Below, piece by piece: positions 8,436 through 57,110 of a DNA stretch of 64,000 nt (position 1 is the first letter of the stretch; every line of letters starts with the position of its first letter). Made by a program: the position numbers and the translations under genes. A model generated the notes under the pieces. The model was not told where the DNA came from, did no database searches, and saw only the letters and a list, made by a program, of their open reading frames with translations. Source of the DNA: Dictyostelium discoideum (lineage: Eukaryota); NCBI GenBank assembly GCA_000004695.1, contig CM000153.2, positions 256,001-320,000 of the forward strand. The letters are read 5' to 3'.

Positions 8436-10040
8436 TTAAACTTTTTTAGTTTTTCTTTTTGTAACTTTTGAAGATGATGTTGATTCTTCCTCTTTTTCTT
8501 TTTCTTCTTCTTCTTCTTCTTGTTTTTCCTCCTCTCTCTCCTCAACCTTTTCTTTAATTTCTTTTTTATCTTGTTGTTGTACTTCTTCAGCTTCTTCAGA
8601 ACCATAATGTGATCTCTTTTTATCAACTGGATAAATCCATCTTTGATAGAGATAAACTATAAAGATAATATCATCACGAAGACAACTTAAACGATGAAGT
8701 AATGGCATTTTAATGATGAAAGCAAATAGATCATCTATAAAGGTATTCAAAGCACGATACATGAATACTCTCCAAGGTAAATGTGAAACTGATTTTAATT
8801 TATAATTGATGAATAATTGTGGTGTCATCATAATGAATTCAAAAGTGTAAACGGTACGTACTAAACTTGAAACTACCCAAGAATACCAACTCTTATGCTC
8901 GTGATAGTATAATGAGTAAATGGAAGTACCAATAACCAATGGGAATAGTAACCATGATAAATACTTCATTGCCATATCATCATATTGTTTAGTTTTTGAC
9001 ATGTATTCATCCTTATTAATGAATTCAATACGTTTTGGTAATGGTAAACTTGTCATCCATGTAATTTTAATTGTCATTGCTTTACCTAATTTCCAAAATT
9101 CAACTAAAAATCCAAATCCACTACTTGCTAAAATCATATAACTAGTTTCATTATCTAATAAATATAAAAATATAATACCCATGCAAACACAATTTAATGT
9201 AATAGTTTTAACTGATAAACCTTCCATTGATTTATTATTTTTCCAAAATTGAATATCTAGTAATAATAAAATAAAAAATAAATAAAATAAAAAAAATTAA
9301 TAATTTATTTATAACTATTTATAATTATTTATAATTATTTATAATTATTTATAATTTACCATTTTTAAAAGCTAAAAATTCAAAAATTGTATGTAAAACT
9401 GATACAATTAAAGTTAAACCTAAAATCCAAGGATCATTATCAGTTAACATTCTTTTGAATTCATCACCAACGCTAGCACCACCCATTGCAGAATTACCAC
9501 CACCACCAAATGATTCTTGCATATCTAATGATTTTTGCATTTGAATTTGTAATTGCCATTTAAATAAACCCATTGATGAATAGTTAATTTCAATACTTAA
9601 TTGTTTAACTGTTTCATTAACTGGTTTTAAATGTTCTCTATATAACCAAAATTCATTACAATAAATAATTGGCGAATAAAATCCATTTGTTATATTAAAA
9701 TCTAAAAAAAAAAAAAAAAAAAAAAAGGGGGTATTAATAAATATATATATATTTATATTTTAATAATAATAATAATATATTTTTTTATGAAATATTCTTA
9801 CAAGATACTATTTCTTTTGGAATTGAATCAGGTGGATAAATTGTATGATCAACAATAAGATGTAATGATAAAGTTGGTTTCCAATATGAAATTAATTCAG
9901 TTGGATCATATTCGACTTCTGGTTCATCTTTTGATTTTTCTTCTAATAAATTTTTACCCTTTGGTTTTGGTTTTGGTAAATAAACAATTAATGCTATTTA
10001 AATAATATATAAAATAGAATTAAAAATTAATAATTAATTA

Positions 10041-10097
<57 letters not shown>

Positions 10098-10640
10098 CAA
10101 TAAATTAATAATAATAATAAATAATAATAACTTACGATGAACTTTATGTAATTGTGATTTTGGTTGATTTAAATAAGCACGTCTTGAAGTTATAATGTGA
10201 GCGAATAATGAGCCATTATTTTGTAAATAAGGTGTTGTATCAAATGTAATGTTTTTAGTTGGAATTGTGTTACTATCTTTCCAATCATAAGATAATTTAT
10301 CTTGTTCCCAAACTAACCAATCTCCAACAGTTTCATTTGAAGTTGATAGATAAACTTTCATATTAAATTCAATACCTTCTGGCCATGAATTTGCTAATCT
10401 AACTGAATTTGATGGTATTGATGTATTTGTAGTACCATTATTATTATTTAAAACAACACCTCCATTATTATTATTATTACCTGTACCTAAAAATTTGGAA
10501 AAAGCAAAACTTGCAATATAATAAATTGCCATAAATCTAATTAATGTTGAAATAATTCCCATTATACCACCTTGTTGTTGTTGTTGTTGAGCTTGTGGTC
10601 TTTGGCCATTTGCTGCAACAGCTCCGCCTTGATTATTCAT
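8436..10640 (-). CDS. CLPTM1 (cleft lip and palate transmembrane protein 1) homologue; join(10640..10136,9993..9802,9701..9360,9256..8436)
   Basis: Four exons with GTAAGT/GTAAGA/GTAAAT donors and AG acceptors. All phases are consistent. Encoded segments align with CLPTM1: FNMKVYLS..., DIQFWKNNKSMEGLSVKT, YDDMAMKYLSWLLFP, MTPQLFINYKLKSVSHLPWR, TFIDDLFAFIIKMP, LYQRWIYPVDKKR. Acidic C-terminal tail. Confidence 0.85.
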
Positions 10641-11047
10641 TTTTGTGTGTATTATGAGTTCACTTTTCGTTTTGGCGATAAAATATGAAATTAAAAAAAA
10701 AAAAAAATAAAAAAAATAAAAAAAGTAAAAAAAAAAAAAAAATTAAAAATTAAAAAAATAAAATAAAATAAAAATAAATTAAAAAAACGAATTTAGATCT
10801 TTTAAGCAATGATTTTCTATTTTTAGTTAAAAATTATTATTGAACCTTTACTATTAAAATTCTAATATAAAATATATATATTTTGGAGACAGGCATGAAT
10901 ATAAGAAGATTTATGAATATATGTATATAAGGTATACTAATATAGTACCCAATTTTATTTATTAATTATTGCTTTTATTTGATGTTGTATTTTTCTTTTT
11001 CTTTTTTTTTTTTTTTTTTTTTTTTTTTGATTTATAAACTTTCCTAT

Positions 11048-12356
11048 TTAAATATTTAAAGAGAATGATCTATCATTACTACTGTATGTTGTATCTGTAT
11101 TTGAACTAAAACTATTTAAATTATTATTATTATTATTGTTATTGCTATTATTATTATTAATAGGATTATCAAAACCAGCACCAATACTATTTTCTAAAAG
11201 TGATTCTCTTTCTTTTCTTCTTTTAATATTATTTCTTTCAGTTTCAGTTTGATCTCTTCCATTATTAGTTGGACTTTTTGAACCCATGAAAAACATTAAT
11301 GCAGATGTTACTGCAATTGCTTCAGGTAAATAATTTAATGCATATAAATCCCATATACTCGATTGAAATGGTTTATCTAAATTAATTATATAATGTGCAA
11401 TCTTTACATCCAAACAAACTATAAAAATAAATGATAAAACTCCAAACTAAATTAATAAATATAAAATTTGTGTTAGTAATAAAATCATTATTAATTTATT
11501 TAATTTAATTTATTTAATTTATTTTTATAATAATTTATATAATTACTTTTCCTAAAAATCTAACTCTATTTGTATGTAAATTATTTGGAATTGACATAAT
11601 CATACGATGTAATCTAATCCAATATACCAAGAAAGCAATTGATAAACAAAATGAGAATGCTGAAATTGATATTAAACCATAACCAAATACATCCTCTGCA
11701 ACATCCATATCACTTTTAGTATAACATGCACTAACTATGAAAATTACTAATATGAATACTGCCGTAAAGATACAAAATAAATTTCTCCATCTCTTTATAA
11801 TATGTTGACCATGTCCTAAATTATGTACTAAATGTATTACCTCTATCCATGAGAACAATACAATATCATACATACAATAATAAGTTATCATTGATATCAT
11901 CTCTGCAAAATCAAATATTGTAACTGATAAATTTGTCGCATTCTCTAAACAAACAATAAATATTATATTTGAAACTATTTTTGCTATATAATATAATATA
12001 ATATAATTTAATTTATTTATTTATTTATTTAAATATGTTAATAAAATTAAAAGTGATTTAATTATTTAAATAATAATAATTTTATTTTTTTTTTTTTATT
12101 TTTTTTTTTAAAAATATTAATTTATTTTTTTTTTTAATTTTTCTAATAATTATTACTTACCAAATGAGTGAACTAAAATTATAATAAATACAGTATATCC
12201 TAAATTTGTATAGGATTTTTTATTTCTAACTAAATGAAAACATACTAAAAATAACATTGAATGCCAAATTGAAAACAATGTTTGAAATACTAATTGTATA
12301 CTTTTTGAAAGACCAGTTCCATCTCCAAAATAAATAAGGCTTATTACCTCAAACAT
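11048..12356 (-). CDS. Seven-pass transmembrane protein, possibly TOM1/THH1 (DUF1084)-like; join(12356..12161,11944..11547,11446..11048)
   Basis: Three exons: GTAAGT donor at 12160, GTTTAG acceptor at 11945, GTAATT donor at 11546, TTAATTTAG acceptor at 11447. Seven hydrophobic segments. The last three resemble the TOM1 family (VFGYGLISISAFSFCLSIAFLVYWIRLHR; LDKPFQSSIWDLYALNYLPEAIAVTSALMFF). The start ATG at 12356 is the first in frame; an additional 5' exon is not excluded. Confidence 0.5.
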
Positions 12357-12413
12357 ATTTAAGAGATATAATTTTTTTTTTTTTTTTTTTTTTAATTTTT
12401 TTATTATTATAGG

Positions 12414-12448
<35 letters not shown>

Positions 12449-12542
12449 AAACGTAAATCAAATTTTAATAAAAAAACAAACGTTGAAATTTTATATTATA
12501 TTTGTTTGATTAATTTTTTGTTTTTTTTTTTACTCGAGTAAC

Positions 12543-12579
<37 letters not shown>

Positions 12580-47937: not shown

Positions 47938-48342
47938 TTAAAAAACAAATTTTTCTTTTTCATTTATTTTAATAATATCTTCTTCATCATATTGTTTACA
48001 AAATTTTTCTAAATAAACTGATCTTGGTGAAACTTCTTGTTTTTTTGGATAAATTCCAATAATGTATGCTTTATTTGTTTTAATTAAAATACAACCATGT
48101 TTTTCGTTTTGTGCATATACTTTATTATTATCGATATTATAAATTAAAAATTCTTCACCAATTATTTTTATAATTTTCCATTTTTTAATATTTTTAAAAC
48201 CTTTTATAATTGCATCACTTTCTCCAATTTGTGGTGATTTATTATATGCTATTGAACTACCATCATATCCTATTACAAATGATGCATAAAATAAATTATT
48301 TTCTAAAAATTCTCTATAAAATTTATCTTTTCTTTCAATCAT
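47938..48342 (-). CDS. Divergent profilin-like protein, 134 aa, single exon
   Basis: Profilin-fold spacing: IGYDGSSIA...GCILIKTNKAYIIGIY...LEKFCKQY parallels GHDGSVWA...GGITIKKT.QALVVGIYDEP...LGDYL. The N-terminus is not the canonical MSWQ. Confidence 0.45.
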   Translation of the reverse strand: MIERKDKFYREFLENNLFYASFVIGYDGSSIAYNKSPQIGESDAIIKGFKNIKKWKIIKIIGEEFLIYNIDNNKVYAQNEKHGCILIKTNKAYIIGIYPKKQEVSPRSVYLEKFCKQYDEEDIIKINEKEKFVF

Positions 48343-50163: not shown

Positions 50164-50562
50164 TTAAACAAGATCCATAACATGACCAACTATAATTTTC
50201 TTTATTACTTTAAATACAAATTCAATATTTTCAGTATCTACAGCTATTGTGAAATGAGTATAAATTTTCTTATTTGGATCAATTTTAACAGATTCAAATT
50301 TTCTTTGAATGTGAAGTGAAACTGCTTCAAAACTATTTTCACCAGTATATTTTTTATCATAAGTTTTGAATGGTACTCTTTTTAATTTTTCAATAAACAT
50401 ATCTTTTTTATTCAAAAAGAGAATAATTGAACTTGAATCAAACCATTTACTATTACAAATTTCTTTAAATAAACTTAATGATTCATCCATTTTATTTACA
50501 TTTATATCTTCTCTTAATGCTTGATCATATCTATATAAAAACTAATATTAGTTTTTTTTTTT

Positions 50563-50611
<49 letters not shown>

Positions 50612-51384
50612 ACTCACTTAAACCAGCAACATAAATTACAGCAGAAACTTTATCAAAACAATGAATCCATTTTCTTCTTTGTGATCTTTGACCACCAACA
50701 TCGATAATTTTCATATTTATATTATCAAAAGTAACATCTGCTTCAATGATACCTTTTGTAGTAACTCTTGCTCTTAATGCATCTTGTGGTGTTGGAATGT
50801 AATTATCTTGGGTAACACGTTGTAAATTATTAAAGAAATATTCTGCTGAATCATTTAATTGAAATTCTTTATCTCTCTTTTCAAATGTACTCTTTATACC
50901 TGAATCATTCCATAATCTTACACTATTCTCTCCAATTTCTTTTGTCCATGTAACTGATGAATGATTTAATTCTAAATAATCTTTTGAAAGTTGCTAAATA
51001 AATAAAATAAATAAATAAAATTATTATTATTATTATTATTATTTTGTGGAAAAAAAAAATATGTATATATATATATTAAATATTTACTATATTTTCAGGT
51101 TGTAATTGAATACCAATACTTTCAGCAGCATTAATTAAAACTTGCAATTGAGTTATTATATTTATATAAATTGTATTACTAAATTCTTGTAACTCTTTTG
51201 TTGTCCAAAGACCATTTTCTTGTAAAATTTTTAATTGTTTGAAAATTGTTGATTTACCAGACTCACCTGCTCCAAGTAATAGTACTTGTGTAATACCTAA
51301 AAATGTCCTTTTATCATCTTTGATTGATTTTTCAATCTCCATTGATACTTTTGTATTATCATTTGATTTACATAAAAATGCCAT
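50164..51384 (-). CDS. Heterotrimeric G protein alpha subunit; join(51384..51088,50993..50614,50530..50164)
   Basis: P-loop GAGESGKST. Switch regions RVTTKGIIEADVTF and DVGGQRSQRRKW. NKKD and TIAVDTENIEFVF motifs. GTAAAT and GTAAGT donors, TTTAG and TATAG acceptors, phases consistent. Confidence 0.85.
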
Positions 51385-52199: not shown

Positions 52200-52700
52200 A
52201 TGTTTGGTGTTTTATTTGTTTCTTCAATTAAATCTAGTTCAGGTTTGGTTTACAAAATGATATTAGTGTACAAATTTAAAAGTTAATTTAATTGTTGATA
52301 GTTCTAATAAAAACAATTCATATTCAATTGAATATGTTGTGGATAGTTCATGTACTAATATGATTAATGCAGTAAATTATTTTAATAGTTATTTAGATCA
52401 CCGGAAAAAGCAATTTATAATTGTATTTGGAATATGTTGATGTTTATGAATATTTATTTCTCCATACACAAAATCCCAAGGAGTAATTATTGATGGATTA
52501 ACCCATATGGAAATTTCTTTGACTATGGTAGTTGTTAAAGGTGTAGACCCACTTCCAACAATAAATACATAATTACAAGTATCAAATATTACTTTTGTAA
52601 ACTTTGTCAGATTATCACTTCTTTTATTATTTGAGAAAAAGGTTAATTATAAGAATTCCTGCGTAATTTTAATTAATTGTAATAAAATCTAAATTCGTCA
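52200..52700 (+). pseudogene. Degenerate partial copy (5' region) of the 55593 surface-protein gene
   Basis: DNA-level similarity to 55610-56000 (TGTTTTATTTGTTTCT.C.ATTAAATC.AGTTCA...TTAATTTAATTGTTGAT...CAATTCATATTCAA.TGAATGTG...). Multiple stops and frameshifts. Encodes residual MFGVLFVSSIKSSS... and ...ISLTMVVVKGVDPLPTINT. Confidence 0.5.
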
Positions 52701-53163
52701 TTTATTGAATCAAGAGATGTTCAACTCCTGGATATTTTTTAAAATTTTCTAATAGCACTATCCAAATTTAAAAAATTCGATTCCCTTACAAGAAAATAAA
52801 AAAACCATTTGAGATTTTTCACTTGTTTTTCAAATTTATGGCTTAAATTTTTTATAATTGTTTTTTTTTTTTTTTTCACATTTTAACAAGTGTGTATTAT
52901 TATTAAAAGATTGGAAATCTTGATTTTTACCAATCACTGGTGATGATGCTGCATTAACACTATCAAATCTAATACAATGTTATTGAATTTGATTTTGAAA
53001 AATTTGCTAAAATCTGACCTCTCTACCACCTAAACTATTACTAATATCCACTATTTTCTTATACACAACCAATACTATTTCCATTAACAGAATTTAAACT
53101 TGATAAACTTATTGAATTGGTTGTTGGTGCTACTATTGCTGTTGTTGATGTTGATGTTGGTGG

Positions 53164-53201
<38 letters not shown>

Positions 53202-53437
53202 CTTGTGCTTCTGTTACTATATTCACCTAACTTTGTTAATTCAGTTAATTCATCGCTATCTCCCATTCCAAAATTATCTTTGATTTCTTCAAGTAACTCT
53301 GTTGCAGTTACATTAGTTTCTAACTATATCTGCTTTTGTTAAATTATTACCATGAACTAATAAGAGTAAATGTTTGAATTTACTAAATGATAAACCTTTC
53401 CCATCAGCAGAGAAAATTATATTTTCAATAATAATCC

Positions 53438-53469
<32 letters not shown>

Positions 53470-53689
53470 TATATTTATTTGATTGAATAATACTATTATA
53501 AATTTGATAACTTTATATTTAAAATATTTTATATTTTATAATGAGTTGATAAAATTATTATTATTATTATTTAAATGTGCGTCAACTATAAAGTGTTTTA
53601 ATTCACTTATTTAATATTCACTTATTTGTGACTAACTTCCTTACATTAAAAAATTAAATGGAAAAAAAAAAAAAAAAAAAATATAAAAT

Positions 53690-53984
53690 ATAAAAATAAA
53701 ATAGTCTTTTCAATAGTTGTGGGGAATTTTTTTTGAAATTTGAAAGGACTAAATTTTTACTTTTTTTTTTTTTTAGTGAAATTAAATAAAATTCACTGCG
53801 CAGTGGAAAGAAATTTTATTGAAATTTCCCTGCAACAAATTTCCATATAAAATTCAGTGCTGGGAAAAATACTCAGAGTAACGCCAAAGTACTTTTGAAA
53901 TTTTTTAAAAAAAATTGAAAAAAATAAAAAAAGTACTGTAGTACTCTCATACTTTGAAGTACTTTATTACTTTTTCTCAATTTG

Positions 53985-54022
<38 letters not shown>

Positions 54023-55250
54023 ACATATATTTTATACTATTATTTATTTTATTATTATTATTTATTTTATTATTATTATTTTTTTAATTTTTTGTTTTTC
54101 ATTAAAAAAATAAGAATAGATGCGTACTTGTCAGTGGTTGAGCATTTATCTTTAGTTAAAATTCTACCAGCAGATGAAAATAATCTTTCGGATTCTACAG
54201 AGGAAAGAGGTAAAGACAAAAGAATGAATGCTATTCGTGATAAAATCGGATATTTACTATTGATTGTATTATTTGACCACCATTTAAAATTATTTGTAAA
54301 TTGACTAGCCACATGTTCATCGTAAACTTTATATAGTTCTTGAATTTCCTGGTGAGATACCAACCTCATTTATTTGAGAGTTTTCATTATCATTATCATT
54401 ATCTTTACTTGTTATATTATCTACTTTATCTATATTATCTATTTTATCATTATCTATATTATCATAATCTAAATTATCATTATCTAAATTATCATTATCT
54501 AAATTATCATTATCTAAATTATCATTAAATAAATTATCATTATCTAAATTATCATTATCTAAATTATCATTATCTATATTATTATTATCATTATCTATAT
54601 TATCATTATCTAAATTTCCAACTCTATCTACATTACTATGATTAACATCATCATTAAAGAATCTATCCACTTCTCTACTATTATTATAATTTTGTTCATC
54701 TTCATCATCTAACTTTCTTTTTTTTTTTTTTCTTTTTTCAGAAAGTGATTTTATTTGGTCCGTTGTAAATAATTTACTATTAAAATAATATCTTCTCTTA
54801 AAAATTTAATATTTGTAAAAGATGGTAAAGGTAAATTATTTAATTCATATAATTGTTCAATTCTAGCTTTTCCTAATTTTTCAATGCTAAAAATTTGAGG
54901 CCTACTCATTTTATAATAAATTTATATCTGTATATCTTTTTCAGTTAAAAAAAATAAAAAATAAAAAATAAAAAAAATAAAATAATAATTTTTTAAAAAT
55001 TAAAAGAACTGAAAAGAAAACTAAAAAGTAAATTACCGAAAGTACTTTTTAATTTTTGAAAATACTTTTTTTTTTTTTGGTGAAAGTCATGATTTCCTTT
55101 GCAAGAAAAAAAAAAAACAAAAAAAAAACAATTTTTTTGATTTTTTTTTTTTTTTTTTTGGTGAAAGTCATGATTTCCTTTGCAAGAAAAAAAAAAAAAA
55201 AAAAAAATATCAAATTTTGAAAAAAAAAAAAAAATTTTAAATTATGGCTT
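53690..55250 (-). mobile_element. Degenerate hAT-superfamily DNA transposon remnant (boundaries approximate)
   Basis: ORF 54369-54076 (minus strand) encodes a textbook hAT C-terminal dimerisation domain (WWSNNTINSKYPILSRIAFILLSLPLSSVESERLFSSAGRILTKDKCSTTDKYASILIFL). Upstream fragments are out of frame and interrupted by a (DNDNL)n-encoding repeat at 54400-54650. Both flanks carry AGTACT-core subterminal repeats (53885-53975 and 55035-55070) and local tandem duplications (55078-55196, 55278-55460). A CACTGCGCAGTG palindrome sits at 53795. Confidence 0.5.
54076..54369 (-). pseudogene. hAT transposase C-terminal (Dimer_Tnp_hAT) domain ORF fragment
   Basis: See the mobile element feature. The isolated ORF is 97 codons and the N-terminal transposase parts are missing or frameshifted. 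Confidence 0.6.
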
Positions 55251-55592
55251 GTTTCGGTATTTCTAAAAATTATTATCTGAAAGTGTGTTTGGATACCATT
55301 TTTTTTTCTTTGTTTTCCAAGATTATAGAAAAAAAAAATAAATTATTTTTTTAAAGACAATAAAATTTTAGAATAATTTGAAACGTGTTCTAAATGTCTG
55401 AAAGTGTGGTTGGTTATCCGATTTTTATTCTTTATTCTCCAAGATTATAGAAAAAAAATAAGAATTCTTTTTTTTTTAAAATCAAGAAAATTTTAATATA
55501 AATTAAAAAAAAAAAAAAAAAAAAACATCAAATCATTTTTCAACATCAAGAAAATTTTAGTATAAATTAAAAAAAAAAAAAATTAAAAAAAA

Positions 55593-57110
55593 ATGTTATC
55601 AAGAAAATTTAATATCATATTATTACTTTGTGTTTTATTTGTTTCTGCTATTAAATCAAGTTCAAATTTAGTTTCTAATCCAAATGCCAACCCTACAATT
55701 TTAAATTTAATTGTTGATTCTAACAAAACCAATTCATATTCAAGTGAATGTGGTAGTTCTTTTGAAGACTCATGTAACAATATTGTGGACGCTGTGAATT
55801 ATTTCCATGAATATAAGAGCAAACCAGAAAACTATAATTCTGCATTGGTTTTGAAATTAGCTGATGGAATATATTCTGGTAAAGTAAATTATATACATAG
55901 TGGATTGGGTTTACATATAACAATTTCAACATACACTTCAAACTCCAATGATGTCATTATTGATGGATCTGATCTCCAAAATGATTTGATTGATTTTGAT
56001 AGTAATTGTTTTAATCCACCTTCTTCAAAAACATATTTAAAAGTATCCAATGTTGCCTTTGTAAACTTTTTCAGCCTTAACTATGACATCTTACATTCAG
56101 ATACATATGGAAAGATGGAAACACAATATATTTTTGATAGATGTAAATTTTTAAATTCTACAAACTTGAGATTCACAGGATATGGGGAATCAAAAGAAGT
56201 AAATTCAATTAGTTTTGAAAAATCAATTTTTGAAAACGTTACTTTCAGAAAATATTCCTTTTTTGCCACAAATTACACAACATCTTTTACATTTACAAAA
56301 TTCAATTCAGTATCCTTTGACGATTCTTTTATTGTTGAAGAGATAGATTCAAAAAAAAAATTAATTGGTTGTTCTTTTAATCAAGTTTCTTTTGGCACTA
56401 AAACCCAAAAGTTATATTTTATCGAGGCAAAGGACCTATCAATTGAATCTTCAACTTTTAATCAAATTATAGGTCCAAAAAGTTCAACTCCTGCTTCTTT
56501 GTTAAAAATTTCAAATAACGTAAATATTACTTTAATTATGTTAAATTCTTTTAATAACTTTGATGGTGTTTTGGCAGAATCAAATAACTCTATGATTTTA
56601 TTCAGTTCAAACACATTTTCAAATAGTAATAGCAAACCAATCATCAAATCATTGAATTCAAATGTAATGTACCATTCCAATACTTTTAAATATTCCAGAA
56701 ATTTAAATGATGATCAATTAATTGATTGCACAGACTCATCAATTTCATTTACATCAAATAATGATGGTAGTGAGATTTTTGAAAAAAATCCACTTTGTAA
56801 AGATTGTTTTATATCTATTGGTTCTAAAACAGTTTGTTCTAAAAAAACAACAACAACATCCTCAACCTCTTCTTCAATTGCAACCACCGGTGAAACCACT
56901 TATACTTCTACCACTGGTGATGATGATGATCATCCAAATGGTTCAGTTGATGGTAAATCTGATTCATATCAATTTTTAGTTATTATTTTAATAATAATTT
57001 CTTATTTTTTTAATTTTACTTTATTTTATTTTATTTTATTTATTTTATTTTATTTTATTTATTTTATTTTAAAATATTATAAAAATGCCAATAATAATAC
57101 TATAGCTTGA
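55593..57110 (+). CDS. Secreted, probably membrane-anchored surface protein with parallel beta-helix-like repeats, 505 aa
   Basis: Signal peptide MLSRKFNIILLLCVLFVSA. N-glycosylation-rich body with repetitive N.T/S beta-strand patterning. The hydrophobic C-terminal tail could be a TM or GPI signal, or partly non-coding AT-rich read-through. Confidence 0.6.
   Translation: MLSRKFNIILLLCVLFVSAIKSSSNLVSNPNANPTILNLIVDSNKTNSYSSECGSSFEDSCNNIVDAVNYFHEYKSKPENYNSALVLKLADGIYSGKVNYIHSGLGLHITISTYTSNSNDVIIDGSDLQNDLIDFDSNCFNPPSSKTYLKVSNVAFVNFFSLNYDILHSDTYGKMETQYIFDRCKFLNSTNLRFTGYGESKEVNSISFEKSIFENVTFRKYSFFATNYTTSFTFTKFNSVSFDDSFIVEEIDSKKKLIGCSFNQVSFGTKTQKLYFIEAKDLSIESSTFNQIIGPKSSTPASLLKISNNVNITLIMLNSFNNFDGVLAESNNSMILFSSNTFSNSNSKPIIKSLNSNVMYHSNTFKYSRNLNDDQLIDCTDSSISFTSNNDGSEIFEKNPLCKDCFISIGSKTVCSKKTTTTSSTSSSIATTGETTYTSTTGDDDDHPNGSVDGKSDSYQFLVIILIIISYFFNFTLFYFILFILFYFIYFILKYYKNANNNTIA

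Follow-up and report, generated by a model that had tools for sequence, protein, structure and literature searches.

Does the 97-codon open reading frame (ORF) on the minus strand of this stretch of Dictyostelium DNA belong to a hAT transposon and, if so, how much of the element remains, and in what condition? The window, by which we mean the whole 64-kb stretch analysed here, has a GC content of 22.4%, typical of Dictyostelium. The ORF runs from ATG to TAA and bears the signature WWSNNTINSKYPILSRIAFILLSLPLSSVESERLFSSAGRI, which is evident on direct reading of the sequence. On this basis the initial annotation proposed a degenerate hAT-like transposon with an intact-looking dimerisation domain, frameshifted upstream transposase parts, and AGTACT subterminal repeats on both flanks.

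The identification of the domain is well supported. In a profile search against transposase models, the 97-codon ORF matches the Pfam family PF05699 (Dimer_Tnp_hAT) with an E value of 1.9e-15 and a score of 56.9 bits (cut-off 21.4), covering positions 4-80 of the 84 in the profile, and a search of the PDB aligns it with residues 535-600 of the Hermes transposase (E 6e-9). The dimerisation signature originally claimed for the ORF is therefore confirmed by both profile and structure database. In the PDB alignment, S60, E61 and R62 of the ORF fall on the SER motif of Hermes, such that E61 occupies the position of E572, which we take from the published Hermes structures to be a catalytic residue within that motif. 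The ORF in the window thus has the C-terminal region of hAT transposases that bears the catalytic glutamate, the third of their catalytic residues.

Relatives of the ORF are numerous, and the closest is found in the same group of hosts. A scan of 1.84 billion representative proteins with a cut-off of E<=1e-3 yielded 2173 relatives, all of which aligned via their C-terminal ends. The best of these (E 2.9e-19) is P0002 (KAN0000854.1), which is annotated in Dictyostelium cf. discoideum as a 'hypothetical protein' and has 765 aa. The hAT dimerisation region spans codons 8-95 of the ORF (54348-54085) and is 55% identical over 88 aa to the C-terminal part of P0002 (aa 674-759), with which it shares the family-specific motif AGR[VI][IL]TKDKCS.TDKYASILIFL. 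No protein nearly identical to the ORF is present in the protein collections searched. A word-index homology search with the ORF gave a single match, a metazoan-like hAT sequence from a metagenome with 38% GC, and the same type of search with P0002 returned P0002 alone.

Other parts of a transposase were not detected. In a six-frame Pfam scan of positions 52801-55600, the hAT dimerisation domain was the only transposase domain found; there was no match to zf-BED in any frame, and none to DUF659, the ZBED1 RNase-like domain or DDE. Checks for a BED finger and a DDE profile, which the initial annotation had suggested, thus found neither in the window. When P0002 and 16 other full-length hAT transposases were compared by tblastn with the whole 64-kb window, matches were confined to 54085-54393, and a second Dictyostelium hAT locus (L005), compared with the 64 kb by tblastn and tblastx, likewise matched only the C-terminal domain. 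An RNase H-like DDE core with its insertion domain was absent from the window both by six-frame Pfam search and by tblastn with these 17 transposases. The window keeps the last ~90-95 codons of the transposase, about 12%, and no other part. Because the catalytic core is absent, the window holds a transposase fragment and not a functional hAT member.

The locus that encodes P0002, hereafter L004, provides a reference for the complete element. It lies in assembly GCA_054859235.1 (contig JBTAPI010000007.1, about 2,029,039-2,031,750; element at 9841-12552 of the extracted locus) and contains an apparently intact hAT element of 2712 bp with one uninterrupted ORF. The terminal inverted repeats (TIRs) of this element, CAATGCTGGGTAA[T/A]AGTACTAAAAAGTAT, are identical at 28/29 positions, and the element is flanked by a perfect 8-bp target-site duplication, ATATTTTC. 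Its ORF shows the canonical order of a weak BED match (aa 166-193), a weak DUF659 match and a strong hAT domain. Like the window sequence, the L004 element has the terminus CARTGCTGGG..A..TACT, AAAAAGTAYT/AGTACT subterminal repeats and a T-rich spacer. The two differ in completeness: of the ORF, the window retains only about 12%, and its reading frame is shifted; a single TIR is left, and the interior contains foreign sequence. Identity of the coding DNA is 62%, with saturation at synonymous sites (pS 0.76), so the window and L004 represent sister families or distantly related members of a single family, and dN/dS relative to P0002 is uninformative.

Comparison with P0002 also reveals how the reading frame was broken. 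Directly upstream of the homology contained in the ORF lies the peptide NEVGISPG, which is encoded in another frame and in tblastn is collinear with SKIGIEPG of P0002 (aa 659-666). The pattern 'GI.PG' occurs only once, at this site, among the 128,000 residues of the six-frame translation of the window. Transposase homology upstream of the ORF amounts to these approximately eight codons, with nothing further. The two reading frames share 2 nt at CCAGGAAAT, and because they overlap in this way, an intron cannot account for the change of frame. The frame has been broken at the 5' edge of the domain by a frameshifting deletion, which measures about 10 or 23 nt against L004. The first seven codons of the ORF, including the ATG, are transposase sequence read out of frame, and the start codon is fortuitous. 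The description of the ORF as intact-looking therefore holds for its 97 open codons between ATG and TAA, but not for its start, which lies outside the ancestral frame and makes the ORF partly accidental.

An ORF of 97 codons and an overlapping stop-free stretch of 159 codons exceed what would be expected of very old junk in DNA of 22% GC, which implies that the relic is either young or somewhat constrained. That the remaining 90 codons are open can be explained without selection. With 41 codons a single step away from a stop, the probability that no stop arises is 0.15 for 0.1 neutral substitutions per site and 0.02 for 0.2. On these figures, the time since inactivation of the relic is probably not very long.

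Beyond the stop codon, the 3' end of the element can be recognized by its likeness to L004. The sequence CAGTGCTGGGAAAAATACT starts at 53855, which is 221 bp past the stop codon (versus 254 bp in L004), and when aligned tip-to-tip with the L004 terminus, CAATGCTGGGTAAAAGTACT, it matches at 17/20 positions. CARTGCTGGG occurs once in the 64-kb window, and the terminus in the form CAGTGCTGGG is unique to 53855. From base composition, we estimate a chance of about 2e-5 that an exact, correctly oriented match to the terminus would occur within 300 bp of the ORF. Inward of this tip, AGTACT hexamers are located at 53888, 53932, 53940 and 53958, all within 80 bp. In the window as a whole, AAGTACT occurs 18 times, compared with an expectation of 6.3 +/- 3.5, and none of 100 shuffles (0/100) reaches 18. 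The L004 3' end is built in the same way, with AAAAAGTA-type repeats, a T-rich spacer carrying TTTTTTTCRA, further repeats, and then the TIR. Because both the terminus and the inward repeats match L004, the left AGTACT repeats are genuine hAT subterminal repeats and 53855 is the 3' tip. The proposal of a degenerate hAT-derived element is thereby upheld on two grounds, the significant profile match and the homology of terminus and AGTACT repeats to an intact Dictyostelium hAT element. Immediately outside the tip, the octamer ATAAAATT is a candidate target-site duplication; at the opposite side, its counterpart is at most a possible AATT half-remnant at 55051-55054, seen in a short AT-rich alignment.

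The 5' side of the element is far less well preserved. Neither degenerate patterns nor mismatch scans turned up a second, inverted TIR between 53000 and 56500 or anywhere else in the window, and with <=3 mismatches allowed on the correct strand, the interval 54400-56500 contains no match to the initial 10 nt of the TIR. A check for TIRs and 8-bp duplications thus recovers one L004-like terminus in the window but no inverted partner. Of the subterminal repeats initially reported on both flanks, the left cluster of four stands, but on the right AGTACT occurs at one site only, as AAAGTACTTT at 55041. The adjoining AAAATACTTT at 55059 is part of a local host repeat, and the right flank therefore carries at most one transposon motif. 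Even the single AAAGTACTTT could be part of a host repeat and not of the element. At the right edge, AAAAAGTACT (55050-55041, minus strand) is inverted relative to the motif at 53928. The AT-rich leader that ends in this sequence is presumed to be the eroded 5' subterminal end, from which about 20 bp of TIR would have been lost along with half of the ATAAAATT duplication.

The sequences that flank the relic allow its limits to be placed more closely. A repeat unit, termed repeat B, consists of a T-run, GGTGAAAGTCATGATTTCCTTTGCAAG, an A-run and AATTTTTTTGA; one diverged copy is present on the left and two tandem copies on the right, all in the same orientation. The right copies form an 81-bp tandem pair (55053-55214) with 86% identity which, together with the 18-bp array at 54028-54086, bears out the tandem duplications reported initially. 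The pattern ATTTCC(N1-3)TGCAA occurs three times in the window, once in the left copy and at 55092 and 55173. Because repeat B is absent from the intact relative, it represents host spacer DNA. The possibility that the GGTGAAAG...TTTGCAAG repeat marks an end of the transposon was considered and rejected: this repeat is not in the intact relative, has a direct orientation on both sides, and exceeds a plausible tip.

When 53854 is joined to 55055, the resulting sequence, ...CCATATAAAATT+TTTGAAAATAC-T13-GGTGAAAG..., can be aligned over its whole length with the junction of the two right copies. Because the joined flanks recreate a unit-unit junction, 53855-55050 (1.2 kb) has the character of a single insertion within a short tandem array. 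If there was a single insertion, the empty site before it would read ...CCATATAAAATTTTTGAAAATAC.... Short AT-rich alignments suggest where the right boundary lies, that half of a target site remains, and in which order the events took place. The block 53855-55050 is single-copy within the 64-kb window, and it lies in a spacer bounded by a decayed paralog fragment at 52200-52629 (E 3e-9) and, at 55593-57110, by an intact signal-peptide/transmembrane gene of 505 aa. Rfam and tRNA scans detected nothing in this region, and scans of metagenomes with the protein pattern and the TIR pattern gave chance matches only. Exact look-ups of nine window proteins, along with a search using a neighbouring G-alpha exon, identified no close orthologue in the collections.

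The sequence upstream of the domain is not the frameshifted transposase that the initial annotation supposed. Beyond the ~8 homologous codons, it comprises a minisatellite, together with sequence that probably derives from a host gene of the CLPTM1 family. The (DNDNL)n repeat that had been noted there is real: Tandem Repeats Finder resolves it as a 15-bp tandem array of 11.8 copies, and this minisatellite (54434-54616) is similar to no transposase. We also tried the upstream ORFs as a transposase N-terminus, and rejected them: in Smith-Waterman comparisons with P0002 aa 1-200, the similarity did not exceed that of shuffled sequences, the best p of about 0.04 being driven by low complexity.

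In the 52-codon ORF farther upstream, KLGKA...LPLP aligns with aa 46-65 of a CLPTM1-family gene encoded in the same window. The best match of this ORF in the window by tblastn is that gene, at 9092-8988 (25.4 bits, E 0.004; 0/200 shuffles reach this score). A second part, LREDIILIVNYLQR, is collinear with LRDDIIFIVYLYQR (aa 182-196 of the gene; 8681-8640), which is the top match of this sub-query but is not significant alone. Relative to the gene, about 115 codons are missing between the two parts. Both matches are short (25 + 20 bits) and reach significance only when the two collinear parts are combined. At the DNA level, 9111-9036 and 54894-54823 align with a z of about 4.6, and blastn gives 76% identity over 59 nt. 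Pfam and PDB searches gave no confirmation of the fragment, which is too short and whose second part is outside the Pfam model. On these alignments, a CLPTM1-derived fragment within the relic is likely. The last exon of the CLPTM1-family gene is the closest available source-like sequence for it. Read in the direction of the transposase, the CLPTM1-like fragment is followed by K/D/N-rich sequence and then by the expanded minisatellite.

Features of the hAT relic and its surroundings, in window coordinates
Feature	Position	Strand	Basis
Last exon of CLPTM1-family gene, not part of the element	8436..9227	-	Pfam PF05602, E 1.1e-43
Repeat unit B-left: T14, core AGTGAAA...TGAAATTTCCCTGCAAC at 53775-53836; abuts the 3' TIR	53727..53846	+	Signature count, alignments
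Candidate target-site duplication copy, 8 bp, ATAAAATT, just outside the tip	53847..53854		Direct sequence reading
3' terminal inverted repeat, tip 53855, CAGTGCTGGGAAAAATACT	53855..53873	-	Homology to L004 terminus
3' subterminal region with AGTACT/ATACTTT short repeats	53874..53975	-	L004 3' end of equal architecture
3' untranslated stretch: A35/T35 homopolymer (53985-54019) and 18-bp tandem repeat, 3.4 copies (54028-54086)	53985..54086	-	Tandem Repeats Finder
97-codon ORF with hAT C-terminal dimerisation region	54076..54369	-	PF05699, Hermes and P0002 alignments
NEVGISPG, out of the ORF frame, at the 5' edge of the domain	54347..54370	-	tblastn, motif count
15-bp minisatellite reading (DNDNL)n, within the 159-codon stop-free stretch 54805-54329	54434..54616	-	Tandem-repeat search
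Probable CLPTM1-family host-gene fragment, KLGKA..LPLP and LREDIILIVNYLQR, within the 52-codon ORF 54909-54751	54760..54894	-	tblastn, blastn
AT-rich leader, 11% GC, ending in AAAAAGTACT (presumed 5' subterminal end)	54910..55050	-	Boundary inferred from flanking-repeat reconstruction
Repeat units B-right1 and B-right2, cores GGTGAAAGTCATGATTTCCTTTGCAAG at 55079 and 55160	55051..55214	+	Tandem-pair detection, alignments

We consider it likely that the minus-strand block from 53855 to about 55050 is an immobile, non-coding, internally deleted fossil of a hAT cut-and-paste transposon. An autonomous element would have inserted at ATAAAATT in a short tandem repeat, within the spacer that separates two tandem paralogous genes. 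An internal deletion or repair event of the Ac-to-Ds kind, involving abortive gap repair with template switching, would then have taken out about 660 codons, and the same event may have brought in the ~135-bp CLPTM1-family host fragment. Conversion of Ac to Ds through abortive gap repair is established for hAT elements. The 15-bp minisatellite would have expanded afterwards, and the 5' tip would have been lost in a ~24-bp deletion that immobilised the relic. The relic cannot supply transposase and, because it has one end only, it is not mobilisable in trans. The suggestion that a captured fragment might be present was pertinent, but in the opposite sense: the element appears to hold a captured piece of the host.

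That last point depends on whether the CLPTM1-like segment was acquired by the element. It sits within the reconstructed insertion block and a parent-like gene is present in the window, but the element has lost its 5' end, and the fragment might be an independent pseudogene beside the hAT landing site rather than cargo. In a fuller version of this history, a truncated hAT element lies beside or within a pre-existing decayed CLPTM1 duplicate, and one deletion took both the 5' four-fifths of the element and the rest of the pseudogene, so that nothing was captured and 53855-55050 is not a single insertion. Such a course of events predicts exactly the absence of the 5' TIR and of the second target-site copy, and it suits a region that is decaying spacer with other gene debris. 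We nonetheless judge it unlikely, since excision of 53855-55050 restores the junction between repeat units end to end, the inverted AAAAAGTACT lies exactly at the right edge, and a separate pseudogene within a short repeat array would require an insertion event of its own.

Retention of all conserved residues of the domain and of the native stop position, in 97 codons that lack a stop in 22% GC DNA, might alternatively reflect an exapted small gene. The host would then express the dimerisation domain either alone (97 aa) or spliced to the CLPTM1 fragment (134 aa), and the product could act as a possible dominant-negative partner of hAT transposases. An in-frame GT...AG pair for such splicing does exist, from GTAAAT at 54777-54772 to CAG at 54351-54349. 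However, the ancestral frame is broken and the ATG lies outside it, survival of the ORF fits neutrality at <=0.1 substitutions per site, and no near-identical protein exists in the collections searched. The putative intron, moreover, resembles decayed coding DNA in its GC content (19%) and differs from the leader (11%). These observations make exaptation very improbable. With its ancestral frame broken and a TIR still attached, the locus also does not resemble domesticated host genes of the ZBED or DAYSLEEPER type. Also improbable is the broader proposal that the relic is one trace of a hAT family which is absent from the classical catalogue, is still active in the D. discoideum group, where D. 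cf. discoideum has an apparently intact autonomous copy, captures host fragments, and yields an expressed 97-aa or 134-aa product that interferes with transposase assembly. We give hardly any credence to the idea of a still-mobilisable Ds-like element whose 5' end is present yet too diverged to recognize, and which a related transposase could move. The inverted AAAAAGTACT at the right edge would fit such an element, as would the T-rich leader and the distance from leader to first ATG, both of which resemble L004. However, hAT transposases, including those of Ac/Ds and Hermes, require both terminal repeats, and no sequence within three mismatches of the first 10 nt of the TIR was found on the correct strand in the interval scanned. 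Lacking the 5' TIR, the relic does not have the two termini of a mobile Ds-like derivative.

For annotation, the locus is best masked as a transposon remnant or pseudogene, and not listed as a 97-aa 'hAT dimerisation domain protein'. The relic is an ordinary transposon fossil without plausible present function, and it changes no open question. It does add evidence that hAT elements are past residents of the D. discoideum group, and it draws attention to the apparently intact relative in D. cf. discoideum, a candidate for testing as a native cut-and-paste tool. What makes the relic notable is only that hAT elements are absent from the classical catalogue of D. discoideum transposons.

That catalogue lists Tdd, DDT and Thug as the only DNA transposons, with transposases that resemble no known family (PMC5633606). 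These are class II elements from the same host group as the relic, which differs from them by its clear hAT signature. The view that hAT lies outside the usual Dictyostelium repertoire is thus correct for the classical D. discoideum list but not for the genus, since D. purpureum carries 105 kb of hAT sequence, corresponding to 9.5% of its transposons (PMC3188802). At least as summarised in one account, the hAT superfamily is present in all eukaryotic supergroups (PMC3942097). A literature search, with Repbase outside its scope, located no published description of the CARTGCTGGG hAT family. Assemblies of the D. discoideum group encode hAT transposases annotated as hypothetical proteins. A further example is P0018 (KAM9975721.1), the transposase of L005, which is encoded on a transposon-rich contig of a D. 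discoideum assembly. P0018 matches P0002 over aa 285-759 and shows 40% identity to the window ORF, but L005 belongs to another lineage, with 27-42% identity and without the CARTGCTGGG terminus.

Among well-studied hAT systems, Hermes (PDB 2BW3, 4D1Q, 6DWW, 8EDG) has a BED domain, an RNase H-like fold with D180 and D248, and an insertion domain, all of which the relic lacks. Ds of maize retains both ends and is mobile in trans, whereas the relic in the window has lost one end. The relic resembles internally deleted hAT elements of the Ac/Ds type in having lost the core but kept terminal and subterminal sequence; in such elements, filler or host DNA at the junction is a typical sign of abortive gap repair.

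The hAT relic, a decayed transposon remnant, lies in the spacer between the two members of a tandem pair, a 505-aa signal-peptide/transmembrane gene (window 55593-57110) and a decayed paralog fragment of it. The fragment aligns with the gene over aa 11-167 at 37.5% identity (E 3e-9). Local repeat B, which occurs on both sides of the relic and gave no match in Rfam or tRNA scans, is spacer DNA. The same spacer holds interrupted ORF pieces, in which there is a run of Asn residues as well as a segment that resembles an EF-hand, FSADGKGLSFSKFKHLL. These pieces have no Pfam match and are probably further gene debris.

Just upstream of the relic region are a profilin-like ORF and the gene for a G-protein alpha subunit. 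A search of the protein collection with the G-alpha exon turned up no close orthologue. Elsewhere in the window, a CLPTM1-family gene is parent-like sequence for the relic's host fragment, a probable scrap of a gene of this family.

Features of the window and of the loci carrying hAT elements compared with the relic
Feature	Location	Strand	Details
CLPTM1-family gene	window 8436-10640	-	at least 2 exons; Pfam PF05602, E 1e-43 and 3e-16
Assembly gap	window 39036-39135		100 N, within 1464-codon ORF 35263-39657 (minus strand)
Profilin-like ORF	window 47938-48342	-	PF00235, E 1.6e-10
G-protein alpha subunit gene	window 50164-51384	-	PF00503, E 8e-33
Decayed paralog fragment of 505-aa gene	window 52200-52629	+	
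ORF pieces	window 52870-53430	-	broken by stops
Local repeat B	window 53727-53846, 55051-55214		T-run + GGTGAAAGTCATGATTTCCTTTGCAAG + A-run; three copies, same strand, flanking relic
Direct-repeat pair	window 55276-55474		~122 bp each, TCTGAAAGTGTG..TTTCCAAGATTATAGAAAAAA; upstream region of 505-aa gene
Apparently intact autonomous hAT element	L004 9841-12552		2712 bp; Dictyostelium cf. discoideum GCA_054859235.1, JBTAPI010000007.1, about 2,029,039-2,031,750
Second, distinct hAT lineage	L005 5600-10700		Dictyostelium discoideum GCA_054859355.1, JBTAPG010000003.1
Intron-bearing hAT element	L001 950-4125		eukaryotic, 38% GC; JGI metagenome 3300042108

The apparently intact element at L004 has a single ORF, which encodes the 765-aa transposase KAN0000854.1 (annotated 'hypothetical protein'), the closest relative of the relic ORF. 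Its terminal inverted repeats match at 28/29 positions and it is flanked by a perfect 8-bp duplication, ATATTTTC. Together, the uninterrupted 765-aa frame, the near-identical termini and the perfect duplication suggest that elements of this type have been active recently within the D. discoideum species group.

Gene calls for the L005 lineage comprise ZBED1_RNase-like and Dimer_Tnp_hAT, with 27-42% identity to KAN0000854.1. This lineage sits at a contig end rich in transposons, alongside DDE_Tnp_4 (Harbinger-type) and reverse-transcriptase genes. The metagenomic element, present on 8 contigs, combines zf-BED, ZBED1_RNase-like and Dimer_Tnp_hAT domains, and its kinship with the Dictyostelium hAT family is at the superfamily level only.
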